Below are positions 4,236-61,533 of a stretch of 64,000 nucleotides of DNA, in pieces (position 1 is the first letter of the stretch; each line of letters begins with the position of its first letter). The position numbers were made by a program, and so were the translations under genes. The notes under the pieces were generated by a model. That model was not told the DNA's origin. It saw nothing but the letters and a program-made list of their open reading frames with translations, and did no database searches. Origin of the DNA: Octopus vulgaris (lineage: Eukaryota). The stretch is taken from positions 76,446,001 to 76,510,000 of the forward strand of contig OX597820.1 of the NCBI GenBank assembly GCA_951406725.2, written 5' to 3'.

Positions 4236-4892
4236 GCTTCTTTCGGTTTTCGTGTTTCAAATCCAAAATCCACTCACAAAGCTTTGGTCTACCCAAAGCT
4301 TTAGGAGGACACACTTGCACAAAGTGCCACGCAATGGCACTGAACCCAGAACTATATGGCTGGAAACCAAAGTTCTTAACACACAACCACCTCCTTTATA
4401 AAACAATACTAAATATACTTGAAGATGTGGTTAATGCTTGAAGTAAGTATTTTGTTGACGCTTTGAAATAAGGATCGGGAAACAGCCGATCCCATTTGAA
4501 TTCAACACCGCTCTCAACTCTATATGAACATATTTATGGTCAGCATTAACACCAAAACGATAGGTTATTGAGTTGTAAAATCAAAGAGTCATTATTTTTC
4601 GTTAACACAGATGTGCTCAAAAATGTTTCTTATGCTTATACATTCCATTGTTTTTAATTGTAATCTTAGTGGCTATTTAAACATTGTATTCGAGGATGTG
4701 GTGCATAAGAGGGAACAGCATATCCCAAAATATGCTTAAACTTCCAATACCTATTTTTCTGTCTTCGATCGCAGTCGTAAATTCCAGTGGTTGCTCTAAA
4801 TTCTAATGAAAATCTGTAAAAATATTCTTACAAAATTTCGCCCTTCGCTTTAAAACGTTTGGGAACTTTGCTCAAATCGAGCAACGTCGTCA

Positions 4893-5068
4893 TTATTATT
4901 CAGGTCACTGCCTGGAATCGAACTCAGAATCTTGGGGTTTGTAGGTCGCGCTCTTAACCACTACGCTAAATGCCCGATGAAGGCTGGAGGGAATATGAGC
5001 CGAAACGTTCCGTTAACAACAAACAAGATGGGGACAAATATCCGTCGAATGTAAATAACGTAAATAAC
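4893..5068. mobile_element. Rearranged copy of the hammerhead SINE (head inverted relative to ribozyme and tail)
   Basis: tRNA head on the minus strand (4901-4975) joined directly to a plus-strand hammerhead and tail (4974-5068). Confidence 0.7.
4974..5014 (+). ncRNA. Hammerhead motif H1, truncated at an inversion junction
   Basis: CCGAUGA-A-GGCUG...GAGCC-GAAAC-GUU. The 5' strand of stem I is replaced by an inverted tRNA head. Confidence 0.55.
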
Positions 5069-27845: not shown

Positions 27846-29437
27846 GTGAATGCGTGTGCTTATCTCCATTTCGGCTTGACAACAATTGTTGGTTCGTTTA
27901 CGTCCTCGTCACATTACCATTTGGACCGAAGACATCGCTAGAATAAGTACTAGACTTTCAAAAACAAACGTTACGGTCGATTTGTTCCGTTAAATCCCCA
28001 TAAGGCAGTGCTTCTGCATGGTCACAACGTAGGTCATGCAATTGAAAAATCCGTATTATTTATGGGATGACCTAATACATATACACATATTTATACACAC
28101 ACACACACACGCAGACACACACACACACACATATATATTTGTATATATATGTTTGCGCGCGTGTGTGTGTGCATGTGTAGATATATATATATATGTTTAT
28201 ATATATATATATCAAATATATACCTGATGATGCTAATGATGATGCTAATGATGATAATGATGTATGCATATATATGTGTGTGCGATTGTGTACGTATATA
28301 TATATATATATATATACAACACACATACATATATATTCTAAAAACTATCATTATCCGGCAGATCTTACAAAGTGACTTAATGGCACTGGTCATACCTGAA
28401 TATGTAAATATGTATGAATGCATTTTAGTAATGCATACATATTCGGTAAATTTGCATCTTCATTCCGTCGGACAAAATGAGTCGCGCCACATGATCCAAC
28501 TGCCTGCGTTATGAGCTCAACTTCCACCGAGACCAACATTACCTTGCATCATTTCAGAATCGATAAAGTAGCATTCTATAACAATTGACTGAGGTAACTG
28601 TAAAGACGTCGAACTTGATACCTTGTGGCATTTATTTTGAGTTTAAATCCCACCATGTTCTGCATGCATGGGTGGAGGAATTCACTCTGTCACAAGAAGT
28701 CAGGGCTGGTTTCCAGTTTGTGTATAACTCCCTCCACCCTTCCACAAAACACAGAAACTCTGTAACGGGCATTGAGAACTGCTTTCTTCGTGGAAACTAC
28801 TTCTATGCTTGTTTTAGTATTATAGTACGCCTCTAGTTTTTTTTTTTCTCCAGTACTTAGCTATTTTCGTAATTTTGTATAGATGCTTTGTTTCCTTATA
28901 ATATTTCAACAATTTTCCGTATTTTGTGTGGTAATGCGCATTGTAATTGCTCTGTGTTGTAAGTGTAAGATTAATTACAAATATCCACGTGCAGTGCACT
29001 CACGCACACATAAATATAAGATATCGCCGGTCGTAGCTTCATTAGAAGGTGAAATCCTTATACGGTTGCCATTCTTTTTTTGGCTCATCTTTTCGATGGT
29101 GCTTCAAGTTTGTTAATTAGGTATGCTTTAAAATTGTAATACTGTGATTTATAAGTAATATGGTCGAATCTAATTCCAAAGCACTTATATAAGATGAACA
29201 ATAAATTAAACAAATATTCGATAGGTAATAAATTAGCTTTTAAAAATCAAAATAAAATATTACACATATATTTTGATTCAAGAGAAGGAAATATTGAAGC
29301 ATTAAAATAAAAAATTCCGGAGAGGCGTGTTGATAATCGTTATCACTTGGTCACAAATTACATGACCAGACAGACAATTGTTTGCTCGAATCAGTTCTTG
29401 CGATGGATAAAAAAGCCCCAAAATAGAAGAAATCATA

Positions 29438-29760
29438 CAGTTCTATATTTAAGAGATTAGGAATTATGTACATTATTTACATTATTTACATTTGACGGGC
29501 ATATGGCGTAGTTGTTAAGAGCGCAGGTTTCTAACCCCAAGATTCCGAGATCGATTCCAGGTAGTGACCTGTATAATAATAATAATAATAATAACAGCAA
29601 CAACAACATTGAAAAATACCTTAGGAATGAGAACCCAGGTTCGAAATTTCCACAAGACACCTGATGACGGCTGGAGGGTATATCAACCGAAAAGTTGTGT
29701 TAACAACAAACAAGATGAGAACAAATATCGTCAAATGTAAATAATGTAAATAATGTAGAA
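29438..29760 (+). mobile_element. tRNA-headed, hammerhead-containing SINE with an inverted copy of its own 3' end at the 5' side
   Basis: tRNA-like head 29497-29571 (A box TGGCGTAGTTG, B box GAGATCGATTCC), (AAT)n linker, hammerhead 29656-29701, tail (GTAAATAAT)2. 29438-29498 is the reverse complement of the family tail. Confidence 0.8.
29656..29701 (+). ncRNA. Hammerhead motif H1, mildly mutated
   Basis: GACAC-CUGAUGA-C-GGCUG...CAACC-GAAAA-GUU-GUGUU. Stem II mismatch and broken stem III palindrome. Confidence 0.65.
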
Positions 29761-31683
29761 GAAATTCTCACTGACCAATGAGAGGGGAGAGCCAAACAGC
29801 CTTATTTCGATAACGTTATGTATAACCTAAAAATACATCAGCTTGTCTTATTGAACTCAACAAATATATTCGTTTCAAATTTTGGCACAAGGCCAGCTAT
29901 TTCGGGGAAGTGGGTTGAGTCTTGAGACGAGTACCTCAACTGGTACTTATTTTATCGACTGCGAAAAGATGACAGACATAATCAAGCTCCGTGGAATTTG
30001 AAATCAGAACGTGAAGCCGGAAGAAATGCCGCTAAGCATTTTGTCCGGTGTGCTAACGATTCTGGCAGCCCGCTGCCTTGTAAAGATACATACACACACA
30101 CAAAACAGGCTTCAGCACGTCTACCAAATTCACTCGCAAAGTATTGGTAGGCTTGGGACTATAGTAGAAAACATTTACCCTTGGTACCGCGTAGTCGGAA
30201 TGAACCCGAAACTACTTGGTCAGAAAGCGAGCTTTTTAACCACACAGCCATGCATATATGTGTGTGTGTACGCACACCATATGTTGACTTCAGATTTTAG
30301 CACGAGGCCAGCAGTTTGGAGTGGGGTTTAGTCGATTACATCGACCCCAGTGCTAGACTGGTACTTATACTATCGATCCTGAAAGGATGAGAAGCAAATT
30401 CAAACTTGGTGGAATTTGAACTCAGAACGTAGCGACGGACGAAATGCTGCTAAGCATAATGCCCGGTGTGCTAACGAATCTGTCATCTTGCTACACTTTC
30501 GCACACCAAATATTAGTTATGATTTCTTACTGATGTCAACTTTCTGATTTTCAAATTAACTGTAAGAATGAAATAATTCCAGACTTACTCTTAATAAAAG
30601 AGTGTAAATTCAGTTTGTCATTAAAATGTTTAATATTTTGCATCCATAATATTGTTTGACCGTACGACACGGAAGATAATTATCAACATATACAAATATA
30701 TCACATGTAATAACTCTCTTTCCAAAACTTATAACTTGCGCTATTACCTCAATCTAGTGGCCTGAACCTATCCATATACGGCATAGCTGCTATTCTAAAA
30801 TGAAAATTACCCGTCTTATCGTATACATCAATCCCCACAGATTTGTTAAAAATCTTAACCGTAATATCCAGATAAATAGTCTTACATCTTTAATTTGACT
30901 AGCTTCAAACCACCTTAGATAAATGTTACAGAAGTTTTAAGAAAAATAACAATGCAATAAAAATATACTCTATATAAAACAACAACTACTTAAGTTGCCT
31001 CACAAAATCAAACTTCTTAGTTTTCCATTAGTCACTAAAATAAACTTACACGGCGCCAAGTGCATATGAGCTAAAAAATGTTCTACAATTAGCCATTCAA
31101 TCTTGTTGCGTATACACGTATACTTACACACCAGTTGCATATAATTCTTTTATTAGAAATAAATACAATTTCTTTGAGAAAAGTCTATTATTTTTTAATC
31201 TTGCAGCCACACATCAGCCTTACCTTGCAGATTTCATAAAACAAGTTTGCATTGAAATAGCTTTACGTAAAATGTATTCAATTTTTTTTGTCATTGCATG
31301 TGGCTTATGTAGTTCACATTTTGTGATTTAGTGTAATAGTTAAGATAACTCTTGATAATATCTACATTATTTCATGCTCTATACGCACACACAAAAGCGA
31401 CAGTTTCTTTTTATATAGCGTTTCTTTGGTGGGTTAAAGTGTCTGTGATATTTTCTTGCTCAACCTTTTTACATGATAACTCCTTCGGAATGAGTATTCT
31501 GACTGGTGAAACGTGTAAGTAAAAAAGTTAATTAAAAAAATCAATCATAATTTACCATGTTAGAAACTCTTTCTGGTGTTTGAGTTAATTAAAGCGAAGT
31601 CCACTTTATTGCAGTAATACATATATTCTGATTTACTAGATATCTTTTCTAATCAACTTTCGTCTGAGGGCCTCTTTGCTGTC

Positions 31684-40238: not shown

Positions 40239-41035
40239 CTGAAATATAGACAAAAATATATGTGATAATTAAATCAGATGTACGACGATCAATAAAAACA
40301 AAAAAAAAAAAAAACACACACACATTGAGTGCACGGGGCAGGTGGGATTGTATGGAAAGACGTTACCTTCTCAACCAAATGGTTCCAGGTTCAGAACCAC
40401 TGCGTAGCACTTTGACTGAGTGAGTTCAATAATGATCTCAGACCAACCAAAGCTTTGTGAGCGGATATAGGAGATAGAAATTGAAAGAAGCGCGTCGCAC
40501 GCACGCACACACACATGCACACAGGCACATACATACATGTGTGTATGTGTGTGTGCGTGCGTGCATGTCTGTATAGTATGAATGTGTTTAGTGTGTGCGT
40601 ATAGTCTGTGTGTTTCTGTGCATGTATGTTTGTTCCCGTACCATCCCTTTACAACCGGTGTTGGTGTGTTTATGTCCCCGTAAGTTAGCAGTTCGGTAAA
40701 ATAGCCTATGATAATACGTACCAGACTTTATACCGGACAAGAGATTTATTATACATATTAATGAATAGGAAAACAAAACCATAGAAATATTTTATCACAT
40801 AACCGAGGTTTTCGCATTATTGTCTAAGTGAAAATATATCCGTGTACCTATTCAGAAGATAAGTTTAACTCACAAAATACAGTAAAAGGGAGAGAAAAAA
40901 TGTTCCAGGGTTTATATTTTTCTGTGGAGGACAACATGTAGGGTTTTGGAACGAGTATGTGACCAGGTATGTACAGGTGACTGCATTTGTGTGTTGAGAA
41001 GGGAGAGAAATATTTATTTGTATAATTGTACTTAC

Positions 41036-41197
41036 GTAAAACCCGCCTTGTGAGCAATATTTGTATAAAAACCAGGTGGGTATGACGGAAATTGGTAAAG
41101 CAACTATGAGCCAACCAATAACCTTTGCCCAGCACGGGTATTCTTTACCATTCAAATCAGGTTCCTTGTAGAGAACGATGTTTAAAAGAGCAATAGT
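41036..41197 (-). CDS. Penultimate coding exon of an SLC6 family Na+/Cl- neurotransmitter/amino-acid transporter (end of TM11 to TM12)
   Basis: 162 nt, phase 0/0. CAG acceptor at 41198-41200 and GTAAGT donor at 41030-41035 (minus strand). Translates TIALLNIVLYKEPDLNGKEYPCWAKVIGWLIVALPISVIPTWFLYKYCSQGGFY, matching the SLC6 YPxWAxxIGW...S.IP TM12 pattern. Confidence 0.92.
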
Positions 41198-41265
41198 CTG
41201 AAATAATTTGGAAACAGAAAATTGAAAACAATATTAGTCGATTATTTACATTATTTATATTTGAG

Positions 41266-41306
41266 AACGTTTCGGCTGATATACCCTCTAGCTTTAATCG
41301 GGTACC
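41266..41306 (-). ncRNA. Hammerhead motif H1, degenerate
   Basis: CCGAUUA-A-AGCUA..CAGCC-GAAAC-GUU; the core has decayed. Confidence 0.45.
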
Positions 41307-41355
41307 TTGGGGAAAGTATTATTCAGGTCACTGAATAATAATAATAATAATAATA

Positions 41356-41398
<43 letters not shown>

Positions 41399-41466
41399 CG
41401 ATGTTGATGACGATGATGATGACGATGACGATGACGACGGCGATGACGACGACGACGACGACAACA

Positions 41467-42212
41467 ACAAAGTGAAACTATTGATCATATCGTCTCCAAG
41501 TGCAGTCTTCTTGCGCCTACAGAGTATCTTAACAGGCATGATAGAGCTAAACAATATATTCACTGTGTAATTTGCAAAAGCCTGGACTTGTTCCATAATA
41601 AAAACTGGTGGGAACACAAACCACCTCCAGTGCTTGAAAATGATCATATCTCACTCCTCTGGAACTTCACCAATCAAACTGACATTGAAATAGATGCAAA
41701 TAGGCCAGACATCATATTGAAAGACTTCAGAGAAAAATCATGCTCCCTCATTGATATGAGTGTCCCAATCGATATAAACGTATCTGTCAAGACCTACCAA
41801 AAACTGAGCAAATATAAAGATCATGAAATAAAAATTAGCAAAATGTGGAAGCTGAAGACTAAAACAATACATGTTGTCATAGGTGCCCTAGAAATGATAG
41901 CAAAAAGGGCTGATTGCTACCTAGCTCAGATACTAAGAAACCCCAAAATGGCAGAAATTCAAAAGATAGTACTCATGGGAACTGCCCATACCCTACGTAA
42001 AATACTTTCTATGTAATCTGAAGTTTTAAAACAAACATAATTTTCTTATGGTTTCTGAAACATTTTCTAGAACAACACTATGTACAAAACCAAATATAGT
42101 GCAACCTAGACATAACACCAACATGAACTTCCAACCTGTTATCTCTTGAGGTCTCTGGGTGATATTTGAAGCCAACTTGTACAAATGTAAAGTAAAAGTC
42201 AAACATAAAATA

Positions 42213-42215
<3 letters not shown>
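41467..42215 (+). mobile_element. R4/Dong-like RLE LINE 3' fragment inserted in a trinucleotide repeat
   Basis: ETIDHIVSKC..RHD..ANRPDIILKD..LIDMSVP..QKIVLMGTAHTLRKIL, then a 3'UTR and (AAT)n. Confidence 0.9.
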
Positions 42216-42280
<65 letters not shown>

Positions 42281-42335
42281 TAAGAAGGAAATCACGACAT
42301 GACAGAGTTGGAACCTACATAAGCTATGCCAACAT

Positions 42336-42374
<39 letters not shown>

Positions 42375-42376
<2 letters not shown>

Positions 42377-42640
42377 CGGCAGATGACAACGTGTCTCTAA
42401 AAGAAATGGAGAAACTCTCAAAATACAAAGACCTGGAAATAGAGGTAACTAGAATGTGGAATCTGAAAACAGAAACAATTCCTATCATAGTAAGTGCATT
42501 AGGCATGATAAAAAAATATTCAGACAAATACATAACAAAAACACCAGGACTTACAAACACATATACATACCCAAGGCACACAGAGCTGCGCTCGGTAGTG
42601 AAGTGAAAGCACGCTATAAAAATAAAAATAAAACTACTGA
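42375..42640 (+). mobile_element. R4/Dong-like RLE LINE short 3' fragment between (AAT)n tracts
   Basis: KEMEKLSKYKDLEIEVTRMWNLKTETIPIIVSALG, with (AAT)n on both sides. Confidence 0.85.
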
Positions 42641-42708
42641 ATAATAATAATAGCAACAACATCGAAAAATACCTTAGGAATGAGAACCCAGGTTTGAAAT
42701 TTTCCCAA

Positions 42709-42754
42709 GACAACTGATGAAGGCTGGAGGGTATATCAGCCGGAACGTTGTGCT
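42709..42754 (+). ncRNA. Hammerhead motif H1, core mutated (GGAAC)
   Basis: CUGAUGA-A-GGCUG...CAGCC-GGAAC-GUU-GUGCU. Confidence 0.6.
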
Positions 42755-43011
42755 AACAACAAACAAGATGAGGACAAATATCCATCATATGTAAATAATG
42801 TATATAATTTCTCATCTCTTAAATATAGAACTGAATATTATTTGAAATAAACAGATAAAATAATGATGTCTCTTCTTTATGAGAAGTTAAAAATGGAATT
42901 TTACGAAAGGAAACGACATATAATTTCGTATAAGGAAATTGTCTTGGAAGAATAAGCGAAGATGATTGAAGCGAAAAGGAAGAGAGTTTGAATACAAACA
43001 ATGGGTAAAAA

Positions 43012-46675: not shown

Positions 46676-46910
46676 AAAGGCGGCGAGCTGGCAGACACGT
46701 TAGCACACCGGGCGAAATGCGTAGCCGTATTTCGTCTGCCGTTACGTTCTGAGTTCAAATTCCGCCGAGGTCGACTTTGCCTTTCATCCTTTCGGGGTCG
46801 ATAAATTAAGTACCAGTTTCACACTGGGGTCGATGTAATCGACTTAATCCCTTTGTCAGTCCTTGTTTGCCCCCTCTATGTTTAGCCCCTTGTGGGTAGT
46901 AAAGAAATAT
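46676..46910 (+). mobile_element. Young family A SINE with an apparent target-site duplication
   Basis: Near-consensus copy flanked by TATATTCTGTGTATTGGCA direct repeats at about 46658 and 46910. Confidence 0.85.
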
Positions 46911-58001: not shown

Positions 58002-59944
58002 AAGAACTCATACCTTTCCATGTTATAAAGCATGCTCGAAAATTTCTGGGAATTTGGGCAAGTAAATCCTGTCGGCCGGGAAAATAAACTGTGGAGGCCA
58101 ATGCGGAAATCTTTGTATTGTCGCTCAACATGCTATAATAAGCAGGCAATTTTCTCATTAATCAAAAACCACCGATTTAAATGAGAAAGGACAGAGAGTT
58201 GGAATATTGTAGTTTTAAATACCATTAAAAAAATCATTGAAAATATCATTACTAGATTTCTTTTGTTTTTGTTTTTTCTGTTCACAGATTTATCGAATTT
58301 AGTTTGACCTAACTCTAAAGAACAACTTGCCTTGTCAGAAACATATCACTAAAATGATTGTTTAAATAACGCAGAGATAAAGAAAAAGAGAGATGGAGTG
58401 GAGGAGGATGAGGAGGAGGAAGGGAAGAAGGGAGGAGGAGGAGACAGACAAACAGACAGAGGTAACGGGTTGTTGAATGAGGGATACGATAGATCGGAGT
58501 TTGTTGAACATTAGCAAGATAATTTCCACGATAAAACAAATTTAAAGAAAGAATGATCAAAAACGAACAGTTAATATCGGAGAGGTTAAGCAAATAACGC
58601 CTTTCATAAAGAATGGTAGTTTGAAAATGATTTATTAGAAGCTATAAATTGAAAAGTAATCCCACTTGCAGATCTATGATGATCGTAGCTAAGACGCAGA
58701 ATAGAAATGTGTTGAATTATAGTTTTGAGAATACAGAGCAGCATATAAAAGAAAAACGAAACAGAGGAAGTTTACACAAAGCAAAACGTAGTGAATTGTG
58801 TAATTTGTATTACGTAAAATCAAAGGTCAAGCTGGGTGGGGAGTTTGCAATATTTCAGAAAAATAAATGGATTGGACGAGGTTTGAAGAGAAGCGGGAAT
58901 TCAGAAATGTGTACTCCTCCATTTAAAAGATATCGGGAAATCAATCATATTAATAGACTAGGGAACGGAATATGTGGTAACACAGAAATATAATGCATAG
59001 TTTAGAGAAATACGAGAGGGGGGATGTTAAGACAAGTAAAAACATAACGAAAAACAAACGATTGCAGTGAGAATATTTTTTAATAGAAGATCCTGCACAA
59101 ATAAATATTTACGTACGAAGTTGAGTTAGGTGTTTTGTAAAAAAATCAAAGATAACACTTGAAAAAGAAATAAAAATAATAACACACTGTTCAAAATGAA
59201 AGGAGAAATGTTAGATTACTGCGGGTCTTTGAGGCATAAAATAGTATATGTTCCGTTTACCATTGGGACGAATTGTACAGAAATTCGAAAAAGATTTAGT
59301 TTGAAAGAACAACCATCAATATGTTGAGATGTGCAGTAATATAAATACAATGCTATACTAACATAACAGGATAGAAACATATGAAAAGAAAAAGCAGTGA
59401 AGTGTAAAAGGAAATAGGAAAATAATATATCGTAAACCGTGTTTATGTATTGCGTTATATTTGGAATAGTAAAGGTAACATGGGAAATATGTAAAGGAGA
59501 AAAGTAAAACAACAATAATAACCCTTTCTGCTTTAAGTACAAGGCTTGAAATTTGGTAGGAGTGGTGCGGGGCAGTCGATTAGATCGACTCCAGTACGCA
59601 ATTGGTACTTAATTTATCGACCCCGAAAGGATGAAATGCAAAGTCGACCTCGGCGGAATTTGAACGCAGAACGTAGCGGCAGACGAAATACCTATTCCTT
59701 TACTACCCAGAAGGGGCTAAAGACAGATTGGACAAACAAGGACAGACAAATGGATTAAGTCGATTATATCGATCCCAGTGCGTAACTGGTACTTAATTTA
59801 TCGACCCCGAAAGGATGAAAGGCAAAGTCGACCTCGGCGGAATTTGAACTCAGAACGTAGCGACAGACGAAATACCGCTAGGCATTTCGCCCTACGTGCT
59901 AACGTTTCTGCCAGCTCAAAACAACAATAATAATAATAAATTGA

Positions 59945-60090
59945 TACATTATTTACATTCGACAGATATTTGTCCTCACCTTGTTTGTTGTTAACACAAC
60001 GTTTCGGCTGATATACCCTCCAGCCTTCTTCAGGTGTCTTGGGGAAAGTTCAAACTTGGGTTCTCATTCCTAAGGTATTTTTCGATGTTA

Positions 60091-60153
<63 letters not shown>

Positions 60154-60234
60154 CCATTGCTTGTAATTGAACTCGGAATCTTGGGGTTAGTAGCCCGCGC
60201 TCTTAAACACTACACCATATGTCCGTGGGCATAG
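59945..60234 (-). mobile_element. tRNA-headed, hammerhead-containing SINE, full-length copy
   Basis: Head 60150-60224, (AAT)n, intact hammerhead, tail. The head start is duplicated as a short imperfect palindrome (ATATGTCC-GT-GGGCATA). Confidence 0.8.
59993..60038 (-). ncRNA. Minimal type-I hammerhead ribozyme, intact core (family H1)
   Basis: GACAC-CUGAAGA-A-GGCUG(GAGGGUAUAU)CAGCC-GAAAC-GUU-GUGUU. Stem I GACAC/GUGUU, 5-bp stem II, palindromic ACGU stem III. Confidence 0.8.
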
Positions 60235-61533
60235 AACCAATAAAATGATAGTTTATCGTTTACTTGATTCAGTTATTGAACTGTGACTTGAAGGGATTTG
60301 AAGGGATTTAGTCGACCTGATCGACCCTACTACTTTTGATTTTTAGGCTTGATATATATCATATCGATTTCTTAGGCCTGGCCGATAAATTACGGCGACG
60401 TAAACAAACCAACGCTAATTGTCAAACGATGGGGTAAGAAACACAGATGCAAAGGCAAACATACGCACAAACACTCCCACACATACACACACGAACACAT
60501 ACACATATATACGATGGGATTCCACATAGTTTCCCTCCATTACAATCACACACAAGATAATTGTCGGAAAGGAGCTGTTATAGAAGACGTGTACCCAATG
60601 TGCCGCTGCGCAGTATGACTGATCCCAAAAGAGTGTGTTTACAAAACAGCTTTGTTAATTCTACAGGATAATCATTATCGTTATTTTTGCTCGGCAGCGA
60701 GCTGGTGGAATCGTTAGCAAACAGGGCAAAAAGCTTGACAGTATTTCTTCCATCTTTACATTTTGAGTTCAAATTACGACGAGGCTGATTTTGCCTTTCA
60801 GTATTTCGAGGGTCGATAAAATAAGTACCAGTTCAATGCTGGGGTCGATGTAATCGACTTAATCCCTTCCCTCTACTTAATCCCTATCCTCAAAGTGATG
60901 CAGCGATAAAAAATTTACGAAGCTCAATATAACCATCATAGCCACCCGTCTGATAAGGGCACACATCATACATGCATTATAACAATGTATGTACGTGATG
61001 GTGATCTTACATGAAAATAAACAGCGCATAACCTTGCAAGTGGGGCCAGTTAGAATTTTCAACACGCTCAAAAGGTCCCCGAATAAGGATTGTTTCCGGA
61101 TGAAGAACAAAACATCCATGTTTCCAAAGGCGAATTATTCAAACCCCCAAACACTTCCTATCAGCACATGGGTATGATACTTCCCTACTATTCCTGCTCG
61201 TGATCCGAGTTGCTATCAAGGCGGTGAGCTGGCAGAATCGTTAGCACGCCCGGCGAAATGCTTAGCAGTATTTCGTTTGCCGCTACGCCCTGAGTTCAAC
61301 TTCCGCCGAGGTCGATTTCACCTTTCAAAATCTCGGCGGCGATTAAATAAGTAACAGTTACGCCCTGGGATTGATGTAACCGACTTACCCACTTCCCGCA
61401 AATTTCAGGCCTTGTGCCTATAATAGAAAGGTTAATTATTATTATTGCTATAATAATAGCAATAATAATTCTTCTTCTTCTTCTCCTTCTTCTTCTTCTT
61501 CTTCTTCTTCTTCTTCTTCTTCTTCTTCTTCTT

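Follow-up and report, generated by a model that had tools for sequence, protein, structure and literature searches.

Four loci of a repeat described earlier as a hammerhead SINE lie in the window, the 64,000-nt stretch of Octopus vulgaris DNA that was analyzed, and pieces of the repeat meet in opposite orientations at each of them. The first (locus 1, 29424-29765) is bounded by an exact 10-bp direct repeat, the target-site duplication (TSD; 29424-29433 and 29756-29765, both on the plus strand), the right copy of which overlaps the element end by 2 nt; the 10-mer itself occurs three times within the window. The left arm (29437-29498, minus strand) carries the 3′-end of a pseudo-LTR (pLTR) with its ~31-nt tail (29437-29468), termed the long end. 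The right arm, on the plus strand, consists of a tRNA-Arg-like head (29495-29575, overlapping the inverted arm by 3-4 nt) with an A-box-like (29504-29514) and a B-box-like motif (29547-29558), an (AAT)n(AAC)n spacer (29575-29604), and the pLTR body with a tail-less short end (29605-29757). In agreement with the preliminary description, which placed the 3′ tail in inverted orientation before the head, 29437-29498 is the reverse complement of the full 3′-end of the element: its inner 29 bp form a perfect inverted repeat with 29729-29757, and its outer ~31 nt are the tail that is absent at the right end. The body contains a likely ORF start, the ATG at 29627 (plus strand), from which the window translates as MRTQVRNFHKTPDDGWRVYQPKSCVNNK, the N-terminal codons of a PLE protein; it aligns with residues 18-59, the N-terminal region, of P0004, an 847-aa relative. 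A minimal type I hammerhead motif is embedded in this coding body (29656-29701, plus strand; predicted cut after 29696), and this copy carries substitutions in stems II and III.

At locus 2, an inverted arm of head and spacer start (4886-4976, minus strand) adjoins a forward arm that runs from the ribozyme core of the body to the short end (4973-5067, plus strand), so that the head (4892-4976) opposes the ribozyme body as had been reported; no TSD was seen at its flanks. Locus 3 has an inverted arm with a short end, an internally deleted body and the head end (41241-41333, minus strand), and its fold-back junction (41317-41340) reads TATTATTCAG-GTCA-CTGAATAATA from 41317, again as reported. 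It is followed on the plus strand by an expanded spacer with later LINE 3′ fragments (41334-42657), whose tie to locus 3 we infer, and by a body with the full tail and thus a long end (42658-42833). This fifth piece, missing from the preliminary description, is probably the forward arm of locus 3, parted from the inverted arm by later LINE insertions; the ends of the joined locus obey the long/short rule described below, and a weak 7-bp TSD candidate was found at 41230 and 42834. The LINE pieces in the spacer are a frame at 41447-42016 and a second piece at 42403-42644. LINE 3′ fragments ending in (AAT)n split the AAT spacer here (41447-42644) and also at L020 and L030; we take them from their motifs to be R4/Dong-like, a microsatellite-targeting type, and the piece at 41471-42013 gave no Pfam match and no useful PDB match. 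Near locus 3, on the minus strand, an open frame with a membrane-helix-like stretch (40865-41233) presumably resembles the C-terminal exon of an SLC6 transporter. Locus 4 is a complete pLTR with a short end (59945-60229, minus strand; head 60146-60229, spacer, body 59945-60089), followed by a junction palindrome and a 7-nt inverted long end (60218-60237, plus strand). The mirrored head start noted earlier is present at 60218-60233, in a palindrome that is partly native to the element, and the 7-nt inverted tail end at 60231-60237 had been overlooked. An 11-bp TSD with one mismatch (59935-59945 and 60239-60249) flanks this locus, which, together with the exact 10 bp at locus 1, overturns the earlier statement that no clear TSD is seen.

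The repeat could be joined to a larger element through the upstream flank common to four seemingly single copies, a flank identified as an ORF 3′-end. In seven loci, this flank encodes an RT core and a GIY-YIG-type domain. Among the 30 best genome matches to the ORF 3′-ends, which include the query locus, 26 continue into the head and 22 into the body as well, and the four without a head stop before the ORF end. In the other direction, the pLTR tail runs into the ORF in 7 of 30 ORF-5′ loci, these being all the loci that extend far enough upstream. One locus (L291) shows the layout EN-pLTR-ORF-pLTR, and P0004 aligns along it from residue 18 to 846. The pLTR is thereby composed of the tRNA-like head, the AAT spacer, the first ~55 codons with the minimal hammerhead motif, and the tail. 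Features of EN+ PLEs are present, namely pLTRs that derive from partial tandems and overlap the start of the ORF (L291), an inverted 5′-truncated copy at the 5′-end, and a tail at one end only (30 of 31 pairs). The ORF gave Pfam matches to RVT_1, with the EN piece unscored by Pfam; homologues of its protein carry RT and PF26215, some of them also PF01541. The copies seen are 83-93% alike and without exception broken, and no intact, young autonomous copy is among them. Two other routes to the partner were rejected: a PLE fragment beside L005 was a chance neighbour, as 11 further copies of it lack body and tail within 1.5 kb, and most matches from a genome search with the Pfam GIY-YIG model belonged to Neptune-type families whose ends are unrelated, the true partner not being among them.

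By pairwise comparison, the element protein is 38-41% identical to the Anolis protein P0057 (836 aa) and 31-32% identical to a local Neptune-type family, and its RT-EN linker lacks the extra Cys motif found in the other PLE families of this genome, an extra Zn-finger-like linker being a Neptune/Nematis trait (PMC8557442). These pairwise identities and the linker, rather than a tree, point to a Penelope/Poseidon-type clade. The continuity of ORF with pLTR and of pLTR with ORF, the coding body, the RT and PF26215 of the homologues and the linker without the Cys motif together support the conclusion that, on its sequence, the 'hammerhead SINE' is the pLTR of an RT + GIY-YIG Penelope/Poseidon-type retroelement. 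The mobilization by PLE rather than LINE machinery suggested earlier is upheld, with the repeat tied more closely to its mobilizer than proposed since it is physically part of the RT + GIY-YIG element. Other PLE families of the genome have ends unrelated to this pLTR. One is a young Neptune-type family (e.g. L159, L164, and L197-L200), four copies of which are 97-99.6% alike and end in (TA)n; many of the 148 GIY-YIG matches listed lie in 781-aa open frames of this type, and the family is possibly still active. Beyond it, the genome contains at least eight more PLE families. An inverted 5′ copy of the own element was found in 2 of 18 GIY-YIG stretches, with a third (L194) belonging to the family of the pLTR element; L189, a copy from another PLE family, has a perfect 766-bp inverted 5′ copy.

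The core and stems of the hammerhead were recognized by inspection and column counts with published criteria (PMC4209133); monomer folds were no better than those of shuffled sequences, and an Rfam search returned neither a hammerhead nor a tRNA match. At L015 (1470-1560, minus strand), the tail pairs with sequence just 3′ of the hammerhead in a predicted 9-bp stem that encloses the 9-nt repeats in which the short ends are located (18 of 200 shuffles equally good, z -1.55), and such a stem could position two start sites. Among nine distant metagenome relatives, one PLE (L333:2387-2417; 30% identity) has a similarly built hammerhead after the ORF, and none of the nine, this one included, has an A/B-box head; low-threshold ARAGORN calls in these relatives look spurious.

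The frequency of inversions was determined in 120 evenly spaced 10-kb stretches, amounting to 1.2 Mb of the 2.8-Gb genome. Head-to-head inversions were found in 9 of 22 element units, a fraction with a wide interval, and tail-to-tail arrangements in none. The corresponding head-to-head counts for four control repeats were 3/183, 0/175, 0/35 and 1/23, with 5, 3, 0 and 0 tail-to-tail arrangements in the same order (Fisher p 6e-8, 5e-10, 6e-5 and 0.004 for the head-to-head enrichment). The inversions are thus strongly enriched relative to chance and to the controls. Control families A and B may not be the families A and B of the preliminary description, and the reference for control B comprised the 3′ 218 nt alone, without the 5′ part. 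The statement of the preliminary description that each locus has an inversion junction stands within the window and does not extend to the genome, as the 9 of 22 sampled units show. Extrapolation from these 22 units gives a rough copy number of ~50,000. Control family A (183 units in the 1.2 Mb; e.g. window 46677-46844) is internally tandem-repeated, and in the tRNA alignment test its 5′ part showed no tRNA likeness; in the LINE-like control family D, a single copy has a head-to-head inversion (L047:1284-1562). The 58 loci that were chosen for their similarity to head or body contained 72 units, 37 of them inverted.

Both 3′-ends could be scored in 31 of the 52 inverted units collected, with a long end defined as body position 183-186 and a short end as 128-168. 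One long and one short end were combined in 30 of the 31 pairs (p=1.4e-8); the remaining pair (L152) has a left arm that extends into ORF sequence and hence lacks a true end there. Single-orientation ends were short in 27 and long in 18 of 45 cases, and of 10 copies that have a short end and a head start, three carry a tiny inverted long end. Of 50 insertions, 23 lie between exact TSDs of at least 9 bp (19 of the 31 inverted and 4 of the 19 single ones) against a mismatched-pair null of 0.9%, two of the 23 sitting in simple repeats (L011 and L139). TSD sizes range from 7 to 18 bp, some element ends overlap the TSD by 1-8 nt, and the pieces abut exactly or overlap at 30 of the 43 junctions that do not involve a microsatellite. 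Among 12 ORF-bearing insertions, with TSDs up to 12 bp, nine combine long and short ends; one arm enters the ORF in another, and the last two pairs are short/short. At L145 (1144-1655), an inverted unit is tandemly repeated head-to-tail with an identical junction, which suggests re-copying of an insertion already inverted.

Next, the head was compared with 35 tRNA sequences from the genome, covering 10 anticodon types only, and the best match was tRNA-Arg(TCT), with a score of 64 compared with a mean of 40 and a maximum of 51 for 300 shuffles. The A- and B-box-like motifs are spaced as in tRNA, and ARAGORN called no tRNA in the window. The head is likely the promoter of the element. In 1.55 Mb not selected for the family, coverage was ~23 over the body and ~17 over the head, and fell to 3 immediately upstream of the head and to 1 further upstream. 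In the random sample, 18 arms contain the head; 11 of these stop at head positions 1-14, four stop at positions 21-41 and three continue into the ORF. Since coverage falls upstream of the head and arms stop at positions 1-14, the simplest reading is that the element RNA would begin at the head, a start read from DNA only. Over ~2.5 kb of the sense strand, no T4 run is common to even 15% of copies, while the sites common to half of the copies comprise 13 T3, 28 A4, 7 C4 and 0 G4. The probability of no T4 run under a codon-aware null was 0.012-0.025, and the pooled per-copy ratio was 0.30; single tilings of decayed copies gave ratios of 0.55-0.85, which are not significant. An RTE copy in the window is likewise T4-depleted (ratio 0.18, p=0.015), two Neptune-type ORFs contain 9 and 8 T4 runs, and three raw RNA runs, unstranded and perhaps from another species, showed no start pile-up and carry no information on start or polymerase. 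The 5′ pile-up at the head and the missing T4 run hint indirectly at Pol III transcription, and Pol III is the likely polymerase of the short unit. That Pol III transcribes the whole protein-coding Penelope element from a tRNA-Arg promoter captured in the pLTR is a tentative proposal, and we lean against it.

Solo copies that form a true SINE, an independently evolving family transcribed by Pol III from the tRNA-like head and mobilized by the PLE protein in trans, would account for the tRNA-Arg(TCT) score of 64 against a best shuffle of 51, for the 11 of 18 arms that end at head positions 1-14, and for solo units far outnumbering ORF-bearing ones. A 1-nt frameshifting deletion occurs at 8 of 88 sites in solo-dominated sets and at 0 of 32 in ORF loci, a difference that would also fit such a family, five of the eight having been chosen by likeness to the window copy. 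The head nevertheless belongs to the autonomous element, and solo and ORF-linked pLTRs have in common the three main non-CpG polymorphisms (head 69, body 61 and body 130), the lengths of the in-frame 9-nt repeats and a body divergence of ~6%, with no solo-specific diagnostic change (at three CpG sites the two sets differ with an uncorrected p<0.05). Moreover, the 3′-end falls into two classes of unique sequence without poly(A) or simple repeat, unlike that of a tRNA-derived SINE. A separate SINE family is therefore conceivable but rather improbable, and the label 'SINE' does not fit copies that have their polymorphisms and divergence in common with ORF-linked ones.

For the pLTR of the Penelope/Poseidon-type element, the following route of insertion is proposed. 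On an RNA beginning at the head, internal priming at the tail of the 5′ pLTR would yield short cDNAs reaching the RNA 5′-end, which would integrate as solo or inverted pLTRs and account for the ~50,000 units. The TSD would come from two cuts staggered by 7-18 bp, both cut target strands would prime, one at the ~31-nt tail end and the other just upstream of the tail, and the two cDNAs would be joined head-to-head through microhomology. The two outer ends of an inverted pair are both 3′-ends of the element, each abutting target DNA, and a single TSD encloses them. In 19 of 30 pairs, 10 nt or more of the short arm have no counterpart in the long arm (just 13-18 nt in four of these 19), and the other 11 pairs are compatible with fold-back. 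Because the 19 pairs violate the nesting that fold-back entails, the data favour two separate start sites, with each strand of the target serving as primer. The PAc protein of Anolis behaves correspondingly in vitro, where it cuts and extends each of the two strands and begins at two internal sites that bound the tail; it is predicted to form a dimer (PMC11167929). It is also reported to start without target homology (PMC11167929), and the TSD overlaps of 1-8 nt run against such a start. Against the proposed route, an inversion was detectable in only 9 of the 22 sampled units, and 27 of the 45 single-orientation ends are short. On the whole, we consider it quite probable that the repeat is this pLTR and that the head-to-head copies come from both cut target strands priming reverse transcription.

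Head-to-head copies would also result if priming occurred once and the cDNA then folded back at the head palindrome to prime itself; self-priming has been proposed for Adineta vaga PLEs (PMC3846280). Junctions lie at the head start in 42 of 56 cases, a count inflated by the head-selected set, exact fold-backs exist (41317), and some non-nested arms could reflect later deletions; with 19 of 30 pairs non-nested and a short arm at locus 1 that has 197 nt missing from the long arm, this origin is unlikely. A LINE-mobilized SINE inverted by L1-type twin priming has in its favour the TSDs of 7-18 bp, the layout of locus 2, the only one to match, and the LINE fragments adjoining some copies. Yet the 3′-end has two discrete positions and no poly(A) or simple repeat, the arms overlap and both start from the 3′-end, the neighbouring LINE pieces lie within the AAT spacer (e.g. 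L020), and the continuity with the GIY-YIG ORF largely refutes this explanation, which is left with hardly any probability. The preliminary description had regarded regular 7-20 bp TSDs as evidence against PLE integration; TSDs were indeed found, but the PLE reading still stands because PLE insertions with inverted pLTRs have TSDs of 8-10 bp (PMC3846280). A secondary origin of the inversions, by chance proximity, ectopic recombination or assembly error in an AT-rich, repeat-dense genome, assembly trouble being noted in the PLE literature (PMC8557442), is extremely improbable given 9 head-to-head against 0 tail-to-tail arrangements (3:5 and 0:3 in control families), a single TSD enclosing the entire pair, and opposite-strand joints also present in raw reads from other samples.

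The integration signature of inversion, TSD and tail is thus published Penelope biology, and the tRNA-Arg-like head is the unusual part. With the repeat read as a pLTR, its tens of thousands of short copies become a natural read-out of the Penelope insertion mechanism, and the long and short ends in 30 of 30 true pairs, with mostly non-nested arms, support coordinated two-strand priming. Because a coding element here has a tRNA-like head within its pLTR, the boundary between SINE and autonomous element is blurred, and a major octopus 'SINE' family has been mislabelled. If Pol III does make the mRNA, which would surprise specialists, the element would be an autonomous Pol III-driven retrotransposon translating an uncapped RNA, perhaps aided by the AAT/AAC leader, and SINE-like short copies shed from its own 5′-end would be a live intermediate in the origin of SINEs. 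Ohshima and Okada in 1994 reportedly described octopus tRNA-derived retroposons, two of them tRNA-Arg-related, and the present repeat could be one of these. OR2 is cited as a CORE-SINE, and the element family may already be catalogued in Repbase or Dfam. The open-access literature yielded no report of an autonomous PLE whose pLTR has a tRNA-derived head.

The closest structural parallels are Pen2a_Av and related EN+ Penelope elements of A. vaga, in which, as here, the pLTR holds the first ORF codons, adjacent inverted and solo pLTRs occur, a 31-bp tail is present at a single end with TSDs of 8-10 bp, and palindromes lie at the inverted junction (PMC3846280). The A. vaga pLTR is described with TATA/Inr-like motifs (PMC3846280), whereas the octopus pLTR begins with the A/B-box head and AAT spacer and exists in tens of thousands of short copies. 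Such integration traits are described for PLEs in general (PMC8557442; PMC8969392), and PLE mobilization of non-autonomous hammerhead elements has been proposed (PMC7761336). PAc, the Poseidon of Anolis carolinensis, resembles the octopus element in its RT and C-terminal GIY-YIG without an extra Cys linker, in a hammerhead that overlaps the ORF start, and in two start sites bounding the tail with both strands cut and extended, which resemble the octopus long and short ends; the available text of that report describes no tRNA-like head, unlike the one here (PMC11167929). The Anolis protein P0057 probably belongs to the PAc family. Minimal metazoan PLE hammerheads agree with the octopus motif in a short helix I, an unpaired base before helix II, G10.1-C11.1 and a palindromic 15.2-16.2; they are dispersed singly or as pairs on opposite strands with 100-700 bp between them, an arrangement attributed to truncated PLEs in a paper whose available text does not contain the word 'tRNA' (PMC4209133). 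The SINE-like hammerhead retroposons of Schistosoma likewise have a Pol III-type promoter followed by a hammerhead, but they are non-coding tandem units freed by cleavage, whereas the octopus unit belongs to an autonomous element, of which it forms the coding end, and is inserted head-to-head (PMC6765202). Finally, TRIMp3 elements (Helenus, Ajax and Cassandra) carry in their terminal repeat a captured small-RNA-derived Pol III promoter comparable to the octopus head; they are non-autonomous LTR elements with PBS/PPT and TSDs of 4-5 bp, whereas the octopus carrier encodes RT-EN (PMC10886601).
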